Shown: positions 12,180 through 33,035 of the stretch, in pieces
Numbering within the stretch: the first letter of the stretch is position 1
How the letters are laid out: each line of letters starts with the position of its first letter
Notes under the pieces: generated by a model
Database searches by the model: none
What the model saw: only the letters and a program-made list of their open reading frames with translations
What the model was told of the DNA's origin: nothing
Program-made: the position numbers and the translations under genes
Assembly (NCBI RefSeq): GCF_003991155.1
Contig: NZ_CP031293.1
DNA from: Escherichia coli
GTDB lineage: Bacteria; Pseudomonadota; Gammaproteobacteria; Enterobacterales; Enterobacteriaceae
Direction: 5' to 3' (one strand)
Length of the DNA: 64,000 nt

Positions 12180-13391
12180 GTGAAAAACAGAACTCTGGGA
12201 AGTGTTTTTATCGTGGCGGGAACCACAATTGGCGCAGGCATGCTGGCAATGCCGCTGGCTGCGGCAGGTGTTGGTTTTAGCGTCACGTTAATCTTGTTGA
12301 TTGGGCTTTGGGCGTTGATGTGCTACACGGCGCTATTACTGCTGGAGGTGTACCAGCATGTCCCGGCAGATACCGGCCTGGGCACGCTGGCAAAACGCTA
12401 TCTGGGACGCTACGGTCAGTGGCTGACGGGCTTCAGTATGATGTTCTTAATGTATGCTCTAACTGCGGCATACATCAGCGGTGCCGGTGAATTGTTGGCC
12501 TCCAGCATCAGCGACTGGACAGGTATTTCAATGTCGGCAACCGCTGGCGTGCTGTTGTTCACTTTTGTTGCCGGTGGCGTGGTTTGTGTCGGGACATCGC
12601 TGGTCGATTTGTTTAACCGTTTTCTGTTCAGCGCCAAGATTATTTTTCTGGTGGTAATGCTGGTACTACTGCTGCCGCATATTCACAAAGTGAATCTTTT
12701 AACCCTGCCGTTGCAACAGGGGCTGGCTCTGTCAGCAATCCCGGTGATTTTTACCTCATTTGGTTTTCACGGTAGCGTGCCGAGTATTGTCAGCTATATG
12801 GATGGCAACGTTCGTAAGCTACGCTGGGTGTTTATAACCGGTAGTGCGATCCCCCTGGTGGCATATATTTTCTGGCAGGTGGCAACGCTTGGCAGCATTG
12901 ATTCAACAACCTTTATGGGATTGCTGGCTAATCATGCTGGATTAAACGGGCTGTTACAGGCGTTACGCGAAATGGTGGCCTCTCCGCATGTTGAGCTGGC
13001 AGTGCATTTATTTGCTGATTTAGCCCTCGCCACGTCATTTCTCGGCGTTGCGTTAGGCTTATTTGATTATCTGGCTGATTTATTTCAGCGTTCAAATACC
13101 GTTGGTGGACGGTTGCAAACTGGTGCAATTACCTTTCTGCCGCCGTTGGCGTTTGCACTGTTTTATCCACGAGGATTTGTGATGGCGCTGGGTTACGCCG
13201 GTGTGGCGCTGGCGGTACTGGCATTGATTATCCCTTCGCTGTTGACCTGGCAAAGCAGGAAGCACAATCCTCAGGCGGGTTACCGGGTGAAAGGTGGTCG
13301 TCCGGCGCTGGTGGTGGTGTTTCTCTGTGGTATTGCTGTGATTGGCGTGCAATTTTTGATTGCGGCAGGCTTGTTACCAGAAGTGGGGTGA
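12180..13391 (+). CDS. tyrP: Tyrosine-specific transporter
   Basis: 403-aa polytopic permease matching recalled TyrP; GTG start. Confidence 0.95.
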
Positions 13392-13441
13392 TTAGATTCT
13401 TATTGGGTGCCAGAATTAACGCTGACACCCAATGTGACCTC

Positions 13442-14107
13442 TTAATGCAGGCAGCACTGCTTAAATTTCTTACCACTGCCACACGGACAAGGATCGTTAC
13501 GCCCCGGTTTCTCTTCTGCTTTGATCGGTTGCTGAACAGCTTTTTCCTGCGGATGCGCCATCCAGTATGCATGTAAATCAAGCGCCGCCAGCCGAATAGC
13601 ATCTACGCTCTCTTCAAACGCTTCTGGCGACATCTTCTCTACCCGCTCGAAGTTTTCCTCAGTACCGTGCAGCGCAATCGCATCCAGCGCTGGTTTTAAC
13701 GAATCGGGCAACGTTGACCAGTCAGAAAGTGCCACGCCCCGCATATAGCCAAAGCACCACTCCTCAACAATCGTCAGCTCGCTGCCATCGACTTCTCGCA
13801 AGCCGAATAACGGCTCAAACTGCTCCGGGAATTCGTTCAGACGCTCTGCGGTATCGGCCATATGCTGAAAAGCCAGGTTCATAAAGCGCGTCATCTCTTT
13901 CTCTGACGCCCAGCGCGGCACATAGTCAGCCCCACCCCACACGGCAACCAGCCACTGTGCCGGTTCAATCTCTTGCGGAGAACTCAACACCGCCGTCAAT
14001 AAACCGTCCAGCTCCGCCACATCAAGAATGGCGTGGTCAGTGTTGTATTTGGTCAGAATATCGTCCAGCCATTCCAACTCACTTTCGTTTAACGGTCCCG
14101 TTTTCAT
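13442..14107 (-). CDS. yecA: UPF0149 / SEC-C metal-binding motif protein YecA
   Basis: 221-aa ORF ending in [13 protein letters not shown] (SEC-C motif); synteny. Confidence 0.9.
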
Positions 14108-14231
14108 ACGCTTTTCCTTGTGGATCTCAACTCGCCAGCACCTATCTTACATGCCGGTCCGTATCAGAGATACTTTTTGAGTGGCTTTGCCGGTGATTAA
14201 AAATTAAGGAGGGTGTAACGACAAGTTGCAG

Positions 14232-14259
14232 GCACAAAAAAACCACCCGAAGGTGGTTT
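14232..14259 (-). terminator. Rho-independent terminator of the glyW-cysT-leuZ tRNA operon
   Basis: Hairpin aaaccacc-cgaa-ggtggttt followed on the minus strand by a T-run, immediately downstream of leuZ. Confidence 0.65.
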
Positions 14260-14302
14260 CACGACACTGCTTATTGCTTTGATTTTATTCTTATCTTTCC
14301 CA

Positions 14303-14389
14303 TGGTACCCGGAGCGGGACTTGAACCCGCACAGCGCGAACGCCGAGGGATTTTAAATCCCTTGTGTCTACCGATTCCACCATCCGGGC
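14303..14389 (-). tRNA. leuZ: tRNA-Leu (anticodon UAA)
   Basis: Reverse complement matches the recalled 87-nt tRNA-Leu with CCA end; anticodon loop region reads TTTAAAATCCC on plus. Confidence 0.9.
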
Positions 14390-14401
14390 TCGGGAAAAAA
14401 G

Positions 14402-14475
14402 TGGAGGCGCGTTCCGGAGTCGAACCGGACTAGACGGATTTGCAATCCGCTACATAACCGCTTTGTTAACGCGCC
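14402..14475 (-). tRNA. cysT: tRNA-Cys (anticodon GCA)
   Basis: Reverse complement matches the recalled 74-nt tRNA-Cys with CCA end. Confidence 0.9.
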
Positions 14476-14529
14476 AAATTCTTCAGGCCTTTCAGCCAGA
14501 CATCCGCTTGACGCCGATGTCTTTTAAAC

Positions 14530-14605
<76 letters not shown>

Positions 14606-14756
14606 ATTCATCAAGCAATCAGTTAATCACTTGATTTTATTATCGTCTGGCAATCAGTGCCGCCGTTCGATGCGTTGCATTCTACTTACCTGGCGCGATG
14701 AGTCAACGATATTTTTCACCACTTTTGATCGTTTGCTGAAAATTGCGCCGAAACGA

Positions 14757-15305
14757 TCACTGATCAAGCAAATCTGCACGCGCAGCGCTCAAATATTGCA
14801 ACATTGACCACAGAGTCAGTACCGCAGCCACAAAGAAAAGTGCAATACCGGCGTACTCAACCCAAATGTTCGGACGCCACAGCAGCCAGGCCAGCGCCAC
14901 CATCTGGGCAGTTGTTTTCACTTTCCCAATCCAGGAGACAGCCACGCTACTGCGTTTACCCAACTCCGCCATCCATTCGCGTAGCGCAGAAATAATAATT
15001 TCACGGGCGATCATCGTTGCCGCCGGTAAGGTCACCCACCAGCTGTGATAATGCTCGGTTACCAGCACCATGGCGATAGCCACGAGAACTTTATCTGCGA
15101 CAGGGTCAAGGAAAGCACCAAACCGGGTACTCTGGTTCCAGCGGCGTGCCAGAAAACCATCGAACCAGTCAGTCACCGCCGCGACGCAGAAAATGAGCGC
15201 GGCGGCAAACGGCGACCAGGTGACAGGCAGATAAAAGACCAATACAAAGAATGGGATAAGGATGACACGGAACAGTGTAAGCAACGTAGGGATATTAAAT
15301 TGCAT
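14757..15305 (-). CDS. pgsA: CDP-diacylglycerol--glycerol-3-phosphate 3-phosphatidyltransferase
   Basis: 182-aa ORF with CDP-alcohol phosphotransferase features; synteny uvrC-pgsA-tRNAs. Confidence 0.95.
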
Positions 15306-15361
15306 AATGACGGGTAACTATCTGTTGTCAGTAAGATTACCCCTATGTTGCTACAGAGACA

Positions 15362-17194
15362 TCAATGTTTCAACGACCAGAAGATCTTTTCTGCCAGACC
15401 TTGCGAAATACCCGGCACTTTTGCAATTTCCTCAACGCTGGCGTTACGTAAACCTTGCAAACCGCCCATATATTTCAACAACATTTGCCGACGTTTTGGC
15501 CCGACGCCTTCAATGGTTTCCAGGGAACTGGTATTTTTGACCTTCGCCCGTTTCTTACGGTGCCCACCAATCGCGTGATCGTGAGATTCATCGCGTATAT
15601 GCTGGATAACATGCAGCGCGGGAGAATCTGGCGGCAAACTGAATCCCTCACCTTCCGGCTCAAAGAACAGCGTTTCCAGCCCAGCCTTACGATCTGCACC
15701 TTTGGCAACGCCAAGTAGCAGCGGATGATTTTTATCCCATGAGACATCCAGTTCGGCGAAGACATTTTTCGCCTGCGCAAGCTGGCCTTTGCCGCCGTCG
15801 ATAAGGATCACATCCGGGATCTTACTGTCGTCAATGGCTTTACCATAACGCCGACGCAGCACCTGATTCATCGCCGCATAATCATCGCCCGGCGTGATGC
15901 CAGTAATGTTATAGCGCCGATACTCCGCACGCAGCGGGCCGTTAGCATCAAACACCACACAGGAAGCGACGGTTTGTTCACCCATGGTATGGCTGATGTC
16001 AAAGCACTCCATCCGCTTCACTTCCGGTAATTTCAACACGCTGGCAAGCGCGGTCAGTCGCTGGTGAACGGTAGATTGCTGCGAAAGTTTGCTGGTTAAG
16101 GCCGTCGCCGCATTGGTGCGCGCGAGTTTCAGATAACGCGCCCTATCGCCGCGAGGTTTGGTTTGAACATTAATCTTGCGTCCTGCCAGTTCTGAAAGGG
16201 AATCGGCGAGCAGCGTTTTATCGCTAAGATTAAAATCGAGCAGGATCTCACCCGGTAAGGTGCGCATCTGGCTGCCTTGTAAATAGAACTGACCTACGAA
16301 GGTTTCCACCACCTCGCTCAGTTCCGTACCGCCAGGCACTTTCGGGAAATAGCTACGGCTGCCGAGCACTTTGCCCTGACGAATGAACAATACGTGGACA
16401 CAAGCCATGCCCGCATCGAACGCCACACCAATAACGTCAAGGTCGTCGCCGGTATTGGACACAAACTGTTTTTCGGTGACGCGTCGCACCGCCTGAATTT
16501 GGTCGCGAATACGTGCCGCTTCTTCAAACTCCAGATTCTGGCTGGCAGTTTCCATACGGCTAATGAGTTGCGTAAGCACCTGATCATCTTTGCCAGACAA
16601 AAACAGGCGCACATACTCGACCTGCTGAGCGTATTCTTCTTCACTCACCAGTCCTTCAACGCACGGTCCCAGACAGCGCCCTATCTGATATTGCAGACAC
16701 GGACGCGAGCGATTGCGATAAACACTATTTTCGCACTGGCGAATGGGAAAAATCTTTTGCAGTAGCGCCAGTGTTTCACGTACGGCATAGCCATTCGGGA
16801 ACGGGCCGAAATATTCACCTTTGGCATGCTTCGCTCCACGATGCATAGCCAGACGCGGGTGAGTATCGCCACTCAGGAAGATAAAGGGATAAGATTTATC
16901 ATCGCGTAGCAAAACGTTGTAACGCGGCTGATAGAGTTTGATGTAGTTGTGTTCCAGCAACAGCGCTTCGGTTTCTGTATGAGTAACCGTTACATCAATT
17001 TGCTGGATCTGGGCGACCAGCGCTTCGGTTTTGCGCGAAGCGAGGTTGCTACGGAAATAGCTGGAAAGCCGTTTTTTCAGGTCTTTCGCTTTGCCGACAT
17101 AGATAACCGTACCACCAGCATCGTACATGCGATAAACGCCTGGCTGGCTGGTTACGGTTTTTAAAAACGCTTTTGCGTCAAACTGATCACTCAC
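15362..17194 (-). CDS. uvrC: Excinuclease ABC subunit C
   Basis: 610-aa ORF with GIY-YIG N-terminus ([25 protein letters not shown]). Confidence 0.95.
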
Positions 17195-17847
17195 TGACTT
17201 GATAATGTCTCCGCATTACACAGACCATGGCGAATTGCCAGGTGAGTCAGCTCAACATCGCCATGAATGTTTAGTTTACTGAACATACGATAGCGGTAGC
17301 TGTTCACCGTTTTCGGACTGAGATTGAGCTGTTCTGAGATCTCATTGACCTTCTGGCCCTTAGTGATCATCAGCATAATCTGCAATTCACGTTCAGACAA
17401 ACTGGCAAATGGACTTTCTGTTTTTTCTGGTTCGATCTGGCTTAATGCCATTTGTTGAGCGATGTCAGAAGCAATGTAACGCTGCCCAGAATAGACAGAA
17501 CGAATCGCACTCACGACTTCCTGCGGAGCCGCGCCTTTGCTGAGGTAGCCAGCAGCACCGGCCTGCATGACTTTCGCTGGTAAAGGGTTTTCTGTATGGA
17601 CAGTAAGCATGATGATTTTGACATCAGCTGTGGAACGCGCGATTTTACGCGTTGCCTCAAGGCCGCCAATGCCCGGCATACTCATGTCCATTAGCACCAC
17701 GTCAACGGCATTTGCCCGGCACCACTTAACGGCGTCTTCACCGCACGATGCCTCACCGACGACTTTTATACCCTTTATATCTTCCAGAATGCGTCGTATC
17801 CCTGCGCGCACCAGTTCGTGGTCATCAACAAGTAGAACGTTGATCAA
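17191..17847 (-). CDS. uvrY: Response regulator UvrY (BarA/UvrY system)
   Basis: 218-aa receiver plus LuxR-type HTH ORF matching recalled UvrY; 4-nt overlap with uvrC. Confidence 0.95.
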
Positions 17848-18304
17848 AGGAATATCTCCAGAAATAGGGATAACGCTACTGATAGTTAGTCATTCGTATA
17901 TTAGCGGTTTTTATTGCAACTTTGAAACGTTAAAAATGGTGGGTATTCGATTTTTCTCTCGTTTTTGTAAATTCGATTGTCCACAGTTATGGTCACGCCC
18001 GTCACCAACGGCTCCGGGATCGTTTCACAGTAAGCCCTGCGATGAAATGTGACAAAAATTGACTTTATTCAGCAAAAATGAAAATCAGCCCGCTGAATAT
18101 GTAACATTAATTAACCCGAACAATACGGGCAAAAAACATTCATGATAAAAATATTTATTGGTCATTATATTAACACATTTAATAGCACCGTTGACGGCAC
18201 GCTCAAAAAACAACCACTGCTATTTTTAGCAAAGCTTATGGTATACTCCGCCGCCTTAACATTTTTCACCGCAAATTTTCATTGCAACATGACGAGGAAA
18301 ATAA

Positions 18305-18529
18305 ATGAGTACGCCTGATTTTTCTACTGCCGAGAATAATCAAGAACTGGCAAATGAAGTCTCCTGCCTGAAAGCGATGCTGACGCTGATGCTGCAGGCG
18401 ATGGGACAAGCTGACGCGGGCCGCGTGATGTTAAAGATGGAAAAACAGCTTGCGCTGATCGAAGACGAAACCCAGGCTGCAGTATTTTCCAAAACGGTTA
18501 AGCAAATTAAACAAGCCTACCGTCAGTAA
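18305..18529 (+). CDS. yecF: DUF2594 protein YecF
   Basis: 74-aa ORF; synteny; terminator hairpin aaccggctga/tcagccggtt follows at about 18536-18570. Confidence 0.8.
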
Positions 18530-18595
18530 TATAAAACCGGCTGAGAGCGTGTCTTTCAGCCGGTTTTTGCATCTGGCACGCAGAAAGAAAAGCGA

Positions 18596-19318
18596 TCAAA
18601 TTAAGCCAGTAGCGGCCGCGTAACAGGCCACTTGGGTCTTATTCGGTGCATTGATTTTTTTCTGCATGTTTTTCTGATGGAAATTGACCGTATTCTCAGA
18701 GATTGACAAAATCATCGCTATCTCTGCTGATGTCTTCCCTTCCGCCGTCCATTTCAGAATTTCTTTTTCGCGCTTGCTGAAATTCATCTCTGGCGTCATC
18801 ACTATTTCATCATTTAAACGCATTAGAGCCATCAGACTTTCGCGCACCAGTAACTGCATTTTTAATTGCAGTTCATCACTAAGAATGGGTATTTCGCGCG
18901 TGCTGCAACGGGAAAAGGACAAAAAGCCCAGCGCCCGATTTGGCAGCATTAAATACTGAGTGACACCGCGGCGTAAACCATGTGCGCGCGCAGCTTCCCA
19001 TAACGGCTGTGCTTCGCTGAATAAGTCATCATTCCACATTAAATGGCCCTGACTAAAGTTTTCAGGGTTCAGCACCGGATCAATTGCGAGAAAATTTTTT
19101 GCCTGATAATAACTAACCCACGACTCAGGGTAATTGGTGTAGAAAGCCACTTTAGGTCGCGTGAATGGTACCGGGTGGCGAACACATAACGAATAGTAAT
19201 CGTACTCCAGCTGCTGAGCCTGAAGCTCTATTTCATGGTAGACCTCTTCTGCGGCCTCCATCCTCTGAAAACGCAACAGCATCGTGCGAAGCCAGCTGAA
19301 AAAATCCGTATCCTGCAT
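18596..19318 (-). CDS. sdiA: LuxR-family quorum-sensing regulator SdiA
   Basis: ORF matches recalled SdiA from MQDTDFFSW (240 aa). Confidence 0.95.
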   Translation of the reverse strand: MQDTDFFSWLRTMLLRFQRMEAAEEVYHEIELQAQQLEYDYYSLCVRHPVPFTRPKVAFYTNYPESWVSYYQAKNFLAIDPVLNPENFSQGHLMWNDDLFSEAQPLWEAARAHGLRRGVTQYLMLPNRALGFLSFSRCSTREIPILSDELQLKMQLLVRESLMALMRLNDEIVMTPEMNFSKREKEILKWTAEGKTSAEIAMILSISENTVNFHQKNMQKKINAPNKTQVACYAAATGLI

Positions 19319-19547
19319 AGTAAACCGCAACGCCCCTGAGAGTGAGTATCATTTATAATGATAATTCAAACTATCACATAAATAAGATTTATATATAATT
19401 TATATTATTCAGGCAATGAATTACTTTTGCAAGCCATCGCATTCTCTTATGTTATTAATGAGTTATGCTGATTTGTTAAGCAGTTTTATCACGTTTGAAG
19501 TGGCGCACCGCCCCGACTGGTGAATCGTCGGGGCTGATTTTTTCTTA

Positions 19548-20300
19548 TTATTGCAGCAGAAACTTCTCGAGGAACTGGCGGGTGCGAGGCTGCTGAGGAT
19601 CGGCAAATAACGCTTTTGCTACCCCCTGCTCGACTATCCGCCCCTGGTCCATAAAAATCGCCCGGTCCGCAACATCCCGGGCAAAGCTCATTTCGTGCGT
19701 CACAATCACCATCGTGCGCTTTTCCTGCGCCAGCTGACGAATGGTGTTCAGGACTTCGCCCACCAGCTCTGGATCCAGCGCCGACGTTGGCTCATCAAAC
19801 AAAATCACTTCAGGACGCATTGCCAGAGCACGCGCAATCGCAACGCGCTGCTGTTGACCGCCAGACAAACGACGTGGATAACTGGTTTCTTTACCGGCCA
19901 GCCCAACTTTCGCCAGCAGCTCGCGAGCGCGCGCCGTGGCCTCTTCTTTCGGTTCGCCTTTGACGATCACCGGCCCTTCAATAATGTTTTCCAGCACCGT
20001 ACGATGTGGAAACAAATTAAAGTTCTGGAAGACAAACCCGACGTGTTGACGCAACTGGCGAATCAGCGATTTTTGCTGACTTAATGAACGTGCAGTATCA
20101 ATAGTGATATCGCCAACGGTGATGGTTCCCGCTTCCGGTTGTTCCAGCAGATTTATGCTGCGTAGCAACGTGGTTTTACCGGAACCACTCGGACCGATAA
20201 TTGCCACTACTTCGCCAGGCTTTACCTCGAGGTCGATACCGTGCAGCACCGTCTGACCGTGGAATTTTTTCACCAGGTTCTTAACTTCAATGGCACTCAT
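19548..20300 (-). CDS. tcyN: Cystine ABC transporter ATP-binding protein
   Basis: 250-aa ABC ATPase (GPSGSGKTT Walker A); synteny (yecC). Confidence 0.9.
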   Translation of the reverse strand: MSAIEVKNLVKKFHGQTVLHGIDLEVKPGEVVAIIGPSGSGKTTLLRSINLLEQPEAGTITVGDITIDTARSLSQQKSLIRQLRQHVGFVFQNFNLFPHRTVLENIIEGPVIVKGEPKEEATARARELLAKVGLAGKETSYPRRLSGGQQQRVAIARALAMRPEVILFDEPTSALDPELVGEVLNTIRQLAQEKRTMVIVTHEMSFARDVADRAIFMDQGRIVEQGVAKALFADPQQPRTRQFLEKFLLQ

Positions 20301-20965
20301 TTGGGTTCCCTCTCCTGGCGATTAAGTTGATTCTCAAAATGGTTCTGCAACGTCGATAACACAGTCGCCATAATCCAGTAGATGAGCGAAGCCGCCAGAT
20401 ACATGGTGAACACCTCCAGCGTGCGCGAGGTAATCAACTGCGCCTGACGGAACAGCTCCGGCACCTGGATTGTCGCGGCCAGCGACGTATCTTTTACCAG
20501 GCTGATAAAGCTGTTCGACAGCGGCGGCAACGCCACCCGCGCCGCCTGTGGCAAAATCGCGCGACGCATGGTCTGCCACGGCGTCATACCAATACTGGCA
20601 GCAGCTTCCCACTGACCTTTATCAATAGAAGAAATGGCGGCACGCAGCGTTTCGGCAGCATAGGCGGCAGTGTTTAGCGACAGACCAATCATTGCTGACG
20701 GAATGGGATCTAGTTCGATGCCAAACTGCGGCAAGCCGTAATAGATCATAAACAGTTGTGCGATGAGTGGCGTACCACGAAAAATAGAGATATAAAAACG
20801 CGCCAGCCAGCGCACGGGCCAGATTGGCGAAAGGCGCATCAGCGCGAGAATAAACCCTAGCAGTAAGCCAAAAAACATACCGCCGATACTGAGTTGCAGC
20901 GTATACCCAGCCCCTTTCAGCAGGAACGGCAAGGAATCAATAACCAGTTGTATACTTTCTTGCAT
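20297..20965 (-). CDS. tcyL: Cystine ABC transporter permease
   Basis: Membrane ORF; start at MQESIQLVID (222 aa); synteny (yecS). Confidence 0.9.
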   Translation of the reverse strand: MQESIQLVIDSLPFLLKGAGYTLQLSIGGMFFGLLLGFILALMRLSPIWPVRWLARFYISIFRGTPLIAQLFMIYYGLPQFGIELDPIPSAMIGLSLNTAAYAAETLRAAISSIDKGQWEAAASIGMTPWQTMRRAILPQAARVALPPLSNSFISLVKDTSLAATIQVPELFRQAQLITSRTLEVFTMYLAASLIYWIMATVLSTLQNHFENQLNRQEREPK

Positions 20966-20979
20966 GAGCATTTCCGGAG

Positions 20980-22871
<1,892 letters not shown>

Positions 22872-22958
22872 ATTCACCCCGAATGTTGTTATGTCTGTTT
22901 GCAGTGTAGAGCCATTGTTTGTAAACACAAAAACAACTCCGCTACATCTTATTCTTAT

Positions 22959-23510
22959 TTAATATATATCAGAAGCAGGCAGGCTGGAGGATTTCTGCAC
23001 AAGTCCGGTACACGTTTGACGCTGATAGTGTTGATACTTCCGTAACGCGATGCGGTAATTGTTGGTGCTGGTGGAGGGCAGCCACGGGGCGAGGATTTCA
23101 TCAAGGAAACCGTCCTGCAGCTGATCGAGGGAAATATTTTGCTCGTGTAGATGATTCCCCAAACGGCGCAGACGAACGACATATTCACGCACCGTACCAG
23201 GGCTCATTTCAGTTTGCTCAAAAAGAAATTGCTTAAAGCCGATAATATCGAAAAAATCACTCTGCGTTTTGCAATGTAAATCACCGCAAAATCGGCACAA
23301 TGCTGCCCATGATTGTTGTTCCACTTGCCAGCCATTTTCATCAAGCAGCGTGTCCAGGCGGGAAATCTCGATTTTATTCACTATTTTGCCGTCGCGAACT
23401 AAGGTAATGCGATCGAGTAATTTACGGCAATGCGCGCAATGGGTCTGGCTGTGTTTAAAGTCTTTAAGATAGCGGCTTAATGGCCGTCTTTTCAGGTGCT
23501 GCACCATCAT
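22959..23510 (-). CDS. fliZ: Flagellar/RpoS regulatory protein FliZ
   Basis: ORF matches recalled FliZ from MMVQHLKRRPLSRY (183 aa). Confidence 0.9.
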   Translation of the reverse strand: MMVQHLKRRPLSRYLKDFKHSQTHCAHCRKLLDRITLVRDGKIVNKIEISRLDTLLDENGWQVEQQSWAALCRFCGDLHCKTQSDFFDIIGFKQFLFEQTEMSPGTVREYVVRLRRLGNHLHEQNISLDQLQDGFLDEILAPWLPSTSTNNYRIALRKYQHYQRQTCTGLVQKSSSLPASDIY

Positions 23511-23555
23511 TAAGAACTCCTGGTAGTCAAAATTAAAGTGCGGCATTTACTGACG

Positions 23556-24275
23556 TTATAACTTACCCAGTTTAGTGCGTAACCGTTTAATGGCCTGGCT
23601 GTGTAACTGACTGACCCGCGATTCCCCGACCTCCAGCACCGCGCCAATCTCTTTGAGATTCAGCTCTTCCTGGTAATAGAGGGTTAATACCAGTTTTTCG
23701 CGCTCCGGCAACGTTTCGATAGCTTCCATCACCCGCTGGCGCAGATTACTGTCCAGCAGTTGTTGTAGCGGGTTTTCTCGCTGATGATCATCAGTAACTA
23801 GTTCGATGCTATCGCCGTGCTCTTCGCGCCACTCATCGTAGGAGAAGAGCTGGCTGTTATTGGTGTCGAGCAACATTTGGCGATAATCGGCAATATCGAT
23901 CCCTAAACGTTCCGCAACCTCCGTTTCCGTGGCGTTGCGGCCAAGTTCCTGCTCCAGTTGCCCTATTGCCTGTGCCACTTCACGCGCGTTGCGTCGCACG
24001 CTGCGCGGCACCCAGTCACGGCTGCGAAGTTCATCCAGCATAGCGCCACGGATACGCTGCACTGCGTAAGTTGTAAATGCCGTTCCTTGTAGGGCGTCAT
24101 AGCGTTCGACGGCATTAAGTAACCCAATGCCGCCCGCCTGTAGCAGATCGTCAAGTTCCACGCTCGCGGGCAGTCGAACCTGCAGGCGCAATGCTTCGTG
24201 ACGCACCAGCGGGACATAACGCTGCCACAGCGAGTGTTTATCCATTACACCTTCAGCGGTATAGAGTGAATTCAC
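23556..24275 (-). CDS. fliA: Flagellar sigma factor sigma-28
   Basis: 239-aa sigma-70-family ORF matching recalled FliA. Confidence 0.95.
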   Translation of the reverse strand: MNSLYTAEGVMDKHSLWQRYVPLVRHEALRLQVRLPASVELDDLLQAGGIGLLNAVERYDALQGTAFTTYAVQRIRGAMLDELRSRDWVPRSVRRNAREVAQAIGQLEQELGRNATETEVAERLGIDIADYRQMLLDTNNSQLFSYDEWREEHGDSIELVTDDHQRENPLQQLLDSNLRQRVMEAIETLPEREKLVLTLYYQEELNLKEIGAVLEVGESRVSQLHSQAIKRLRTKLGKL

Positions 24276-24396
24276 GATAAACAGCCCTGCGTTATATGAG
24301 TTATCGGCATGATTATCCGTTTCTGCAGGGTTTTTAATCGGACGATTAGTGGGTGAAATGAGGGGTTATTTGGGGGTTACCGGTAAATTGCGGGCA

Positions 24397-24420
24397 GAAA
24401 AAACCCCGCCGGTGGCGGGG
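24397..24420 (-). terminator. Rho-independent terminator of fliC
   Basis: GC-rich hairpin ccccgcc/ggcgggg followed on the minus strand by TTTTTT. Confidence 0.7.
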
Positions 24421-24438
24421 TCAGGCAGGTTAAGGCCA

Positions 24439-25770
24439 TTAGCCTTGTAACAGAGACAGAACTTGCTGCGGTACCTGGTTGGCTTTAGACAGCACGGAGT
24501 TACCCGCCTGCTGGATGATCTGTGCTTTCGACATGTTGGACACTTCGGTCGCATAGTCGGCGTCCTGAATACGGGACTGCGCTTCAGACAGGTTGGTAGT
24601 GGTGTTGTTCAGGTTGGTGATAGCGGAATCGAGACGGTTCTGCACGGCACCTAGAGAAGAGCGGAATTTGTCGACTGTTGCAATAGCTTTATCCAGAAGC
24701 GCCAGCGGATCCTCAGTTGAAGCACCTTCAAATTGCTCAGTCGCAGTTGTAGTTACCTTACCATTAGTATCAGTAACATCACTTAAATTCAGATCAGTTA
24801 ACTCAAGAGCTGTTGCTCCATTCTTAAGAATGTCTGCCGCATCACCAGCAGAATAGTTTTTGCCTTGAAGTGTGACGAAACCTTGAGCTGCGCCGTCTTT
24901 ATCTGCTGAAACTTTGATCAGCTGATCTGTTTGCTTGGCATCGTCAACACCGTTCGCATAATCATCATAAGTAACATCAATGGTGTTTAAGGTTACTTTA
25001 CCTGAAGCGGCATCAACAGAAGCAGCATAGAAGTCTTTACCTGACTGAACAACATAATCAGCTGTTGCCTTACCATCTTTATCAAGGATGTTGTGCAGCG
25101 ACAGGCTTGACGTATCGGATACACCCAATTTAGTTGCAATTGCTGCAGACTCATCAGTATTACCGAAGTTAACATCAACAGGTTTATCGCCAGCGTCTTG
25201 CGGGATAGATGTGATAGCATTGCTGACATTAAGAGAGTTTTTAGAAACTGAGAAGCCATTCAGCCCCAAAGTTGAAGAATCAATTTTCTTCAGATCGATG
25301 GAGATAGTTTGACCATCATTCGCACCAACCTGAATTTTCATTGAACCATCTTTGGAAAGAACATTAACGCCGTTGAACTGAGTCTGACCGGATACGCGGT
25401 CAATTTCATCGAGACGGGATTTGATTTCGTCCTGGATTGAAGATAGGTCAGAATCAGAGTTAGTACCGGTAGTGGCCTGAACGGTCAGTTCACGAACACG
25501 CTGCAAGTTGTTGTTGATTTCAGACAGTGCGCCTTCAGTGGTCTGCGCCAGAGAGATACCGTCGTTGGCGTTACGTGCGGCCTGAGTCAGACCTTTGATG
25601 TTAGAAGTGAAGCGGTTAGCAATCGCCTGGCCCGCAGCGTCATCTTTAGCGCTGTTAATGCGCAGACCAGAAGAGAGGCGCTCGATAGAAGTCGACAGCG
25701 CAGACTGGTTTTTGTTGATGTTGTTCTGAGTGATCAGCGAGAGGCTGTTGGTATTAATGACTTGTGCCAT
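24439..25770 (-). CDS. fliC: Flagellin, non-K-12 allele (443 aa)
   Basis: Conserved flagellin N-terminus (MAQVINTNSLSLITQNNINKNQSAL) and C-terminus (QVPQQVLSLLQG) flanking a divergent central domain; about 55 residues shorter than recalled K-12 FliC. Confidence 0.95.
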   Translation of the reverse strand: MAQVINTNSLSLITQNNINKNQSALSTSIERLSSGLRINSAKDDAAGQAIANRFTSNIKGLTQAARNANDGISLAQTTEGALSEINNNLQRVRELTVQATTGTNSDSDLSSIQDEIKSRLDEIDRVSGQTQFNGVNVLSKDGSMKIQVGANDGQTISIDLKKIDSSTLGLNGFSVSKNSLNVSNAITSIPQDAGDKPVDVNFGNTDESAAIATKLGVSDTSSLSLHNILDKDGKATADYVVQSGKDFYAASVDAASGKVTLNTIDVTYDDYANGVDDAKQTDQLIKVSADKDGAAQGFVTLQGKNYSAGDAADILKNGATALELTDLNLSDVTDTNGKVTTTATEQFEGASTEDPLALLDKAIATVDKFRSSLGAVQNRLDSAITNLNNTTTNLSEAQSRIQDADYATEVSNMSKAQIIQQAGNSVLSKANQVPQQVLSLLQG

Positions 25771-25846
25771 GATTTCTTTTCCTGTTTTCAAGTCTACGGT
25801 TTAAGTATTGGGCTTCCACCCTTCGGCTTCGTCGCCGTCAACCCTG

Positions 25847-25873
25847 TTATCGTCTGGTCACTCACAACCTTTA
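25847..25873 (-). promoter_or_regulatory. Sigma-28 (class 3) promoter of fliC
   Basis: Minus strand reads TAAA-N15-GACGATAA, close to the sigma-28 consensus TAAA-N15-GCCGATAA. Confidence 0.65.
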
Positions 25874-25946: not shown

Positions 25947-25973
25947 TAAACTTTGCCCCGCTTACGCCGATAA
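25947..25973 (+). promoter_or_regulatory. Sigma-28 (class 3) promoter of fliD-fliS-fliT
   Basis: Exact consensus TAAA-N15-GCCGATAA on the plus strand, about 40 bp upstream of the fliD start. Confidence 0.75.
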
Positions 25974-26015: not shown

Positions 26016-27431
26016 ATGGCTAGTATTTCAACGCTTGGGGTTGGGTCGGGGCTGGACTTAAGCAGCATCCTTGACAGTCTGGAGGCGGCAGAAAAATCTA
26101 CCCTGACGCCGATATCAAAACAGCAAAGCTCTTATACCGCGAAACTGAGCGCCTACGGGACGCTGAAAAGCGCACTAGAGAGCTTCCAGACAGCCAACAC
26201 AGCACTGAATAAAGCCGATTTATTTACCGCCACCTCAACCACCAGCAGTTCATCGGCTTTCAGCGCCACCACCACGGGCAGCGCGATTGCCGGGAAATAC
26301 ACCATTAGCGTTAGCCAACTGGCGCAGGCACAGACGCTGACCACCCAAAATAGTCAAAAAGACAGTAAAGCTGCCATCGCCACCAGCGATAGCGTACTAA
26401 CCATCCAGCAAGGTGGCGGTAAAGATCCGGTCACGATTGATATCAGCGCGGCTAACTCGTCACTTTCCGGCATTCGCGATGCCATTAACAACGCCAAAGC
26501 TGGTGTCAGCGCCAGTATCATCCATGTGGGTAACGGCGAGTATCGTCTGTCCATCACTGCTAACGATACGGGCAGCGATAACGCTATGAAACTTAGCGTC
26601 AGCGGCGACAGCGCCCTGGAAAGTTTTATGGGTTACAACGGAACGTCGGGTGATAGCAGCAATGGCATGATTGAAAGCGTCACTGCGCAAAACGCCAAAC
26701 TGACAGTCAATAACGTTGAGATTGAAAACAGCAGTAACACTATCAGCGACGCGCTGGAAGATATCACCCTCAACCTGAATGACGTCACCACCGGTAATCA
26801 GACACTGACCATCAGTAAAGACACATCCAAAGCTGAAAATGCGGTTAAAACGTGGGTGGATGCCTATAACTCATTGCAGGATACGTTCAGCAGCTTAACC
26901 AAATACACCGCTGTCGATGCCGGAGCAGAGAGTCAGGACTCCAGCAATGGCGCATTACTCGGTGACTCCACACTGCGTACCATCCAGACTCAGCTTAAAA
27001 CCTTGCTCGCCAATACTCACAGCAGTTCAAACTATAAAACGCTGGCACAGATTGGCATTACCAGCGATGCCAGTACCGGCAAGCTGGAAATCGCGACCGA
27101 CAAACTGCAAACGGCGCTAAAAAAAGATGCCGCTGGCATCAGTGAAATGTTTATAGGTGACGGTAAAAGTACAGGGGTAACCACCGGCATTAGTAGCAAC
27201 CTAACCAGTTGGCTCTCTTCCACCGGGATAATCCAGGCCGCAAAAGATGGCGTCAGCAAAACGCTGAATAATTTGACCGACCAGTACAACGCAGCCAGTG
27301 AGCGTATCGATACCTTAATGACGCGCTATAAAGCCCAGTTCACCCAATTAGATGTGTTAATGAACTCGCTTAACTCCACCAGTAGCTATCTGACACAGCA
27401 ATTCGACACCTCAAATAGCAACTCGAAATAA
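26016..27431 (+). CDS. fliD: Flagellar filament capping protein
   Basis: 471-aa ORF with FliD-like N- and C-termini; synteny. Confidence 0.95.
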   Translation: MASISTLGVGSGLDLSSILDSLEAAEKSTLTPISKQQSSYTAKLSAYGTLKSALESFQTANTALNKADLFTATSTTSSSSAFSATTTGSAIAGKYTISVSQLAQAQTLTTQNSQKDSKAAIATSDSVLTIQQGGGKDPVTIDISAANSSLSGIRDAINNAKAGVSASIIHVGNGEYRLSITANDTGSDNAMKLSVSGDSALESFMGYNGTSGDSSNGMIESVTAQNAKLTVNNVEIENSSNTISDALEDITLNLNDVTTGNQTLTISKDTSKAENAVKTWVDAYNSLQDTFSSLTKYTAVDAGAESQDSSNGALLGDSTLRTIQTQLKTLLANTHSSSNYKTLAQIGITSDASTGKLEIATDKLQTALKKDAAGISEMFIGDGKSTGVTTGISSNLTSWLSSTGIIQAAKDGVSKTLNNLTDQYNAASERIDTLMTRYKAQFTQLDVLMNSLNSTSSYLTQQFDTSNSNSK

Positions 27432-27446
27432 TCTTCAGGAGAAACT

Positions 27447-27857
27447 ATGTACGCGGCAAAAGGCACCCAGGCCTATGCACAAATTGGCGTCGAAAGCGCC
27501 GTAATGAGCGCCAGCCAACAGCAGCTGGTCACCATGCTATTTGATGGAGTGCTGAGCGCACTGGTTAGAGCGCGCCTGTTTATGCAGGACAACAATCAGC
27601 AAGGCAAAGGCGTCTCTTTATCAAAAGCGATCAACATCATTGAGAACGGGCTGCGGGTGAGTCTTGATGAAGAGAGCAAAGACGAATTAACCCAAAACTT
27701 GATTGCTCTTTATAGCTATATGGTCAGGCGTTTGCTGCAAGCCAATTTACGCAACGATGTCTCCGCAGTCGAAGAAGTGGAAGCATTAATGCGCAATATT
27801 GCCGATGCCTGGAAAGAGTCTTTACTCTCCCCTTCTTTGATTCAGGACCCAGTCTGA
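27447..27857 (+). CDS. fliS: Flagellin-specific export chaperone
   Basis: 136-aa ORF; synteny. Confidence 0.95.
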
Positions 27858-28222
27858 TGAACCACGCACCGCATTTGTATTTCGCCTGGCAACAACTCGT
27901 CGAAAAAAGCCAGCTCATGTTACGCCTGGCAACGGAAGAACAATGGGACGAACTCATCGCCAGCGAAATGGCGTATGTGAATGCGGTGCAGGAGATTGCA
28001 CATCTGACTGAAGAGATTGACCCGTCCATCACGATGCAGGAGCAGCTCCGCCCGATGCTGCTCCTGATTCTCGATAACGAAAGCAAGGTAAAGCAGTTAT
28101 TACAGATTCGGATGGATGAACTGGCGAAACTGGTCGGTCAGTCATCGGTGCAAAAATCGGTGTTAAGTGCCTATGGCGATCAGGGCGGCTTTGTGCTGGC
28201 TCCGCAAGATAACTTCTCGTGA
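27857..28222 (+). CDS. fliT: FliD-specific export chaperone
   Basis: 121-aa ORF; start overlaps the fliS stop. Confidence 0.9.
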
Positions 28223-32631: not shown

Positions 32632-33035
32632 TAAGCCAGGAGACTATTGATCAATAATACTGCGTCATAAGAAATCTCTATTAGACAAAGTAGACGCTCC
32701 TTCCACATGCGCCACAAGAAACCTCTATTCCAGTGACACAATTACGCCTGATTATTTCCCTAGCCCGGAATATGAATAAAAACATCAACAAAGATTAAAT
32801 TATTCAAACGTTACTGTTGCGTCTGCGGTCGTAACAACAACCGACCTGGTGATGCGTGTTAAAGGAGACACTCTGATGTTCAGGGGGGTTATCACGTATA
32901 CGGATCGTGGATGGCAGAAAACAATCAGGATCAGGTATCCATTTTAAACCAGAAATTGAGTGAGTTTGCCCCATCCATGCCCCACGCTGTGGGATCGGAT
33001 GTAATTAAACAAGCATAGTCAACAGGTTACAAAAC

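Follow-up and report, generated by a model that had tools for sequence, protein, structure and literature searches.

The fliC locus and its product

The window analysed here, that is, the whole stretch of 64,000 nucleotides of Escherichia coli DNA, carries the flagellin gene fliC in the gene order fliZ-fliA-fliC, followed by the divergently oriented fliD-fliS-fliT-amyA. The order is the same as in K-12. The locus comprises the following features:

23556–24275, minus strand: fliA, the gene for sigma-28; it borders the cassette on the left and is conserved, matching K-12 at 99.2% of nucleotides and 100% of amino acids
24381–27447, no strand assigned: fliC–fliD cassette of 3.07 kb that is divergent from K-12 (sliding-window identity and mismatch positions)
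24402–24422, minus strand: strong intrinsic terminator of fliC, a 9-bp stem and a T run, 16 nt past the stop codon
24439–25770, minus strand: fliC coding sequence, 443 aa, H25 flagellin of the non-O145 subtype (ORF, Pfam, NCBIfam, identical genomes)
24439–24708, minus strand: codons 355–443 and stop, the conserved C-terminal part (D1/D0; Flagellin_C at 357–441)
24709–25251, minus strand: codons 174–354, the hypervariable, H25-specific surface part (every alignment column from F173 to P355, these two excepted, varies)
25252–25770, minus strand: codons 1–173, the conserved N-terminal part (D0/D1 filament core; invariant columns up to F173 in a 16-allele alignment)
25847–25873, minus strand: sigma-28 (FliA) type promoter of fliC, TAAAGGTT-N11-GACGATAA (pattern scan)
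25947–25973, plus strand: sigma-28 type promoter of fliDST, TAAACTTT-N11-GCCGATAA (pattern scan)
26016–27431, plus strand: fliD, filament cap protein, 471 aa, class A allele (classes are described below; Pfam, NCBIfam)
27447–28222, plus strand: fliS and fliT, which border the cassette on the right and are conserved (nucleotide identities to K-12 of 98.3% and 97.0%)

The mechanical six-frame ORF list gives fliC as a minus-strand ORF at 24439–25791 that opens at an upstream TTG. As the MAQVINTNSL start corresponds to the ATG at 25770, we set the coding sequence to 24439–25770 (1332 nt); the reading frame is intact over 443 aa. Pfam Flagellin_N (PF00669, 158.7 bits) covers residues 5–140 and Flagellin_C (PF00700, 109.4 bits) residues 357–441, and the protein passes the cut-offs of two NCBIfam models, both named FliC/FljB family flagellin: NF005953 (634.3 versus 619) and NF005294 (510.9 versus 387). 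Together with the position at the fliC locus and the sigma-28 promoter, the latter a consensus match only, these domains place the protein among bacterial flagellins of the FliC/FljB family. Neither a flagellin locus other than fliC nor a phase-variation islet fits the data: the gene sits at the canonical site and no extra genes accompany it. The flagellar regulators flhDC, fliA and fliZ are annotated as intact in strain CREC-544, whose chromosome matches the window (see below).

In flagellins the conserved ends form the D0/D1 core of the filament, and the middle part is the exposed surface that carries the H antigen. The first-pass annotation of this DNA had described fliC as a non-K-12 allele with conserved ends and a shorter variable domain, and our analysis bears this out. 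Residues 1–178 and the last 88 residues are each 93% identical to K-12 FliC at the amino-acid level, and the K-12 length of 498 aa, which had been given for comparison, agrees with the annotated gene (1497 nt). The central region had been put at roughly codons 180–380; the start of that interval is close, but its end lies about 25 codons too far. In an alignment of 16 flagellins the last invariant residue of the N-terminal part is F173 and the first of the C-terminal part is P355, which sets the variable region to codons 174–354. It spans 181 aa here versus 236 aa in K-12, and this explains the entire 55-aa difference in length between the two proteins. An AlphaFold2 model of FliC built from 16 aligned E. 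coli flagellin sequences is of low confidence, with a mean pLDDT of 56.8 and values below 50 at residues 308–353.

Established flagellar biology suggests how the locus would operate. The fliC gene would be transcribed from the FliA (sigma-28) promoter, and the flagellin exported via the flagellar type III system with the aid of the FliS chaperone and polymerised beneath the FliD cap. Residues 1–173 and 355–443 would then make up the filament core, with the 181-residue middle exposed on the surface as the H25 antigen; expression, assembly and antigenicity of the protein are thus predicted by analogy. The sigma-28 pattern has just five matches across the 64-kb window.

The fliC terminator is kept in all five aligned loci (5/5). 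The spacer between fliC and fliA measures 163 bp in the window and 320 bp in K-12, and the 157 bp absent here are REP elements, of which the bulk of the K-12 small RNAs FliX/FliX-S consists. Lacking this REP segment, the fliC 3' UTR at 24381–24438 has only ~16 nt and the terminator. Among 5,426 complete E. coli genomes the long form of the spacer is found in 3,503 and the short form in ~35%, EcPF18 and strain 6817 being further carriers of the latter. The long form also occurs in a second H25 strain, which makes the short form independent of H type. The FliX layer of regulation, described only in K-12, may therefore not be general, with ~35% of genomes lacking the REP segment.

H type and lineage of the fliC allele

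The evidence points very strongly to a chromosomal fliC that encodes H25 flagellin in E. coli of the ST457 lineage. Of the 5,426 complete genomes, 42 contain a copy with 100% identity to this gene. One of these is TCM3e1 (NZ_CP066806), typed as O11:H25 by SerotypeFinder (PMC8801394); another is CREC-544 (NZ_CP024826), reported as ST457 (PMC9860340). The whole window equals positions 2067053–2131052 of CREC-544 (reverse strand) at 63,999 of 64,000 bases, the sole difference being one base at 23922, inside fliA. That base is synonymous and leaves the protein unchanged, as FliA is identical to K-12 FliA. Given this near-complete match, the window represents a segment of an ST457-lineage chromosome that runs from motA and flhDC via the fli genes to zinT.

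Published typing data agree with this assignment, and no observation speaks against it. The fliC-H25 gene is reported as 1332 bp encoding 443 aa (Beutin et al. 2015, PMC4441469), exactly the length found here. Forward primer, probe and reverse primer of the generic H25 real-time PCR match fliC nucleotides 676–756 with no mismatches and in the correct orientation, and the oligonucleotides of the H28 assay have no match in fliC. In the assay for the O145 subtype the forward primer and the probe match perfectly, but the site of the second primer has four mismatches. The allele is accordingly not of the H25[O145] type and belongs to the other H25 branch, in agreement with the published negative result of this assay for an O11:H25 strain (PMC4441469); the single O11:H25 strain in Table 4 of that study is non-motile. 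The H-antigen typing that the first-pass annotation had proposed as a check thus returns H25, via identity to a typed strain, gene length and PCR sites. The allele is already known: H25 is catalogued and the lineage well sampled. For this window the gain is an assignment of H antigen (H25) and lineage (ST457, typically O11:H25), and otherwise the allele matters little.

A reader who compares the window with K-12 alone could take the flagellin allele for a novel one or for an H type not yet catalogued, since the variable region is almost without similarity to K-12 and the PGAP name is the generic 'FliC/FljB family flagellin'. The 42 complete genomes with an identical gene include a strain typed as H25 in print, which refutes this view; the length, the perfect H25 PCR sites and the distribution of the variable region itself also speak against it, and we give it practically no credence. 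The stretch 24700–25240 has matches of at least 97% identity in 146 of the 5,426 genomes, and weak partial similarity (66–68%) in 22 others; 104 complete genomes carry a non-identical H25 allele that is 95–99% identical across it. The 178-aa variable segment has 95.5% amino-acid identity to an H25 strain of another subtype, SCU-308. It is 56% identical across 133 aa (E = 2e-40) to a flagellin type of 436 aa and 42% identical to one of 426 aa, versus 26% to K-12 (E = 0.046, marginal in a database of 16 sequences). Identity of the central domain to the K-12 H48 allele, which would have overturned the first-pass reading, is not what we find: there is no nucleotide match to K-12 across 24713–25252.

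These identities assign H25 to a small set of short flagellins that are related to one another, and argue against its origin as a deleted H48. The latter idea, that a longer flagellin such as that of K-12 recently lost part of its outer domain, draws on the 55-aa deficit and on the 26% alignment just mentioned, which falls on K-12 residues 281–407. The aligned part is, however, far too diverged for a recent deletion, and even the conserved ends stand at dS 0.5–0.6 versus K-12. Moreover, all H25 alleles share the 443-aa length across many serogroups, the related 426-aa and 436-aa types have the same architecture, and none of the 5,426 genomes contains a longer allele that is near-identical to H25 outside a single indel. 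We consider a deletion origin extremely improbable and retain the assignment to the established H25 type.

The two H25 subtypes allow a closer look at the central domain, which had been proposed to be under diversifying selection. Between the window and SCU-308, pN/pS of the variable region is 0.50 versus 0.00–0.03 in the conserved ends. Within H25 the ratio of the variable region is raised, but it stays below 1. In the same comparison synonymous divergence is 0.175 over 24439–24708, the 3' part of fliC, versus 0.03–0.04 in the remaining gene. This rise suggests a mosaic structure, with a putative recombination junction within fliC.

Several further features lie elsewhere in the window. At 32690–33018 the window lacks yedL and yedN of K-12, and the part adjoining fliE (~32869–33018) is an integrase remnant, which the CREC-544 annotation marks as incomplete. 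Between hchA and drpB, at 54399–55472, there is an intact porin gene; its K-12 counterpart, yedS, is a pseudogene. A tyrosine-type recombinase gene at 63103–64000, ~850 bp from zinT, runs off the end of the window and may belong to an integrated element beyond it.

The divergent fliC–fliD cassette and its classes

The window is collinear with K-12 and ~98% identical to it over 12499–24380 and from 27448 onwards. Between these segments identity falls to 66–89%, and nucleotide alignment fails altogether in the variable region of fliC. Mismatches are few as far as 24381 and then crowd the sequence up to 27447, the fliS start codon; the next one is at 27518, and from there they are rare again. The edges are sharp, and what differs is precisely the gene pair fliC and fliD with the promoter region that the two share, ~3.07 kb in all. 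The first-pass annotation had suggested looking for recombination breakpoints flanking fliC and fliD; such boundaries lie just past the end of the fliC coding sequence, at its terminator, on one side and at the first codon of fliS on the other. We infer from this pattern that homologous recombination in the flanks, which are conserved, replaced the cassette: fliC, fliD and the promoter region between them would be inherited as a unit, which would be swapped by crossing over on the fliA side and in fliS.

The cap protein has diverged from that of K-12, as the first-pass annotation had supposed. FliD of the window contains Pfam FliD_N and FliD_C (PF02465, PF07195) and scores 685.6 against the cut-off of 387 of the NCBIfam equivalog NF005955, as is appropriate for a filament cap protein. 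It is 471 aa long versus 468 aa in K-12, with 80% protein and 73% nucleotide identity. Rapid adaptive evolution of the cap in this lineage could be invoked here, as FliD is exposed at the tip of the filament and the 80% identity compares with 96–100% in neighbouring proteins, and diversifying selection had been put forward for the central domain of the flagellin. The substitution pattern of fliD does not fit. Synonymous sites of fliD are saturated (pS 0.70, dS ~2.1), with dN 0.147 and dN/dS 0.07, and the flanking genes have dS of only 0.04–0.08. Saturation combined with a low dN/dS indicates alleles that are far older than the species background and held under purifying selection, and speaks against rapid local evolution.

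The distribution of fliD across the species points the same way. A low-stringency search of the 5,426 complete E. coli genomes returned fliD matches of at least 97% identity in 1,323 genomes and of 73–74% in 3,189: identities fall strictly into two groups, and the range from 74% to 97% is empty. The fliD class of the window also accompanies several flagellin types in unrelated strains. Taken together, we regard adaptive divergence of the cap in this lineage as very unlikely, and favour the exchange of an old cassette.

A combined fliC and fliD search recovered a third form in ~860 further genomes. Its fliD has 56% DNA and 50% protein identity to that of the window and ~58% DNA identity to that of K-12, and its flagellin ends in LSLLR. 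E. coli thus harbours three cassette classes, deeply diverged from one another: class A, to which the window belongs (~24% of genomes), the K-12-like class B (~59%) and the third class, C (~16%). In 16 fetched loci the fliC–fliD spacer is 245–247 bp in the class of the window, 265 bp in that of K-12 and 254 bp in the third, and across the same loci fliA is 99–100% and fliS 96–100% identical.

We found no description of allelic classes of E. coli fliD in the open-access literature. Hu and Reeves (2020, PMC7018530) sort E. coli flagellins into two main sequence clusters and do not mention fliD. The classes have a practical consequence: screens that map K-12 genes can call fliD absent, given that its DNA identity is 73% in ~24% of genomes and ~58% in a further ~16%. 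When K-12 genes were mapped onto ST131 genomes, an 'absence of fliD' was reported (PMC5369007); this is probably an artefact of the divergence of class A fliD, which ST131 may carry.

The class of fliD may be associated with the length of the flagellin. Class A is paired only with short flagellins, of 349, 426, ~428, 436 and 443 aa, in 22 sampled genomes, namely seven loci (the window and six fetched ones) and 15 genomes for which the fliC length was inferred from the span of the match; one of the 15 spans carries an IS insertion, and its fliC length was left out. Class B is paired with flagellins of 420–670 aa. The idea that class B fliD occurs only with long flagellins was rejected, since strain 5CRE51 combines class B fliD with a 420-aa flagellin. 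Given the small sample and the overlap in length between the two classes, a link between cap and flagellin length is only a lead. Insertions at the locus were seen in ECOD1 (NZ_CM129827.1, 2887423–2891753), in which an IS4-like ISVsa5 lies inside an otherwise identical fliC–fliD stretch, and in PEC389 (NZ_CM168012.1), in which an IS1 lies in the same stretch; both look like natural disruptions of the locus.

The three classes are ancient and do not intergrade, and one could imagine that each cap allele is functionally matched to its flagellin group. We put this matching forward tentatively and consider it rather doubtful. Were cap and filament co-adapted, one would understand why fliC and fliD always lie together within the recombination boundaries. 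No description of cap–flagellin matching in E. coli was found in the searchable literature; a parallel has been published for Salmonella. The wider value of the present analysis is limited to the three-class structure of the cassette and to this possible matching.

Comparison with known flagellins and flagellar loci

The fliC-H25 of O11:H25 / ST457 strains (TCM3e1, CREC-544) is identical to the gene of the window, with no difference of substance. The fliC-H25[O145] subtype, found in EHEC O145:H25, O177:H25 and others (PMC4441469), is of the same length and H type and differs at the site of the second primer. More distant are the 436-aa and 426-aa flagellins of strains such as Eco889, 30EVA2 and N-01. 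These have a fliD of the same class and a homologous variable region, but are shorter than H25, represent other antigenic forms and have diverged across most of the variable region. With the K-12 H48 flagellin (NP_416433, PDB 8cxm) the protein shares its ends, and the locus has the same position, promoters and chaperone genes; the H48 variable region is, however, 55 aa longer and essentially unalignable, fliD is of class B, and the fliC–fliD spacer is 265 bp versus 245 bp here.

The closest parallel to the cassette as a whole is the fliB-fliC-fliD cluster of Salmonella enterica. In Salmonella, Liu et al. (2017, PMC5744181) found that the trees of fliB, fliC and fliD agree and resolve two lineages, whereas fliA and fliS have the history of the core genome. 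The flagellin gene is thus co-inherited with the cap gene in deep lineages, with the same boundaries as in the window. E. coli differs in that fliB is absent from the locus described here, the classes number three and not two, and they have no link to phase variation.
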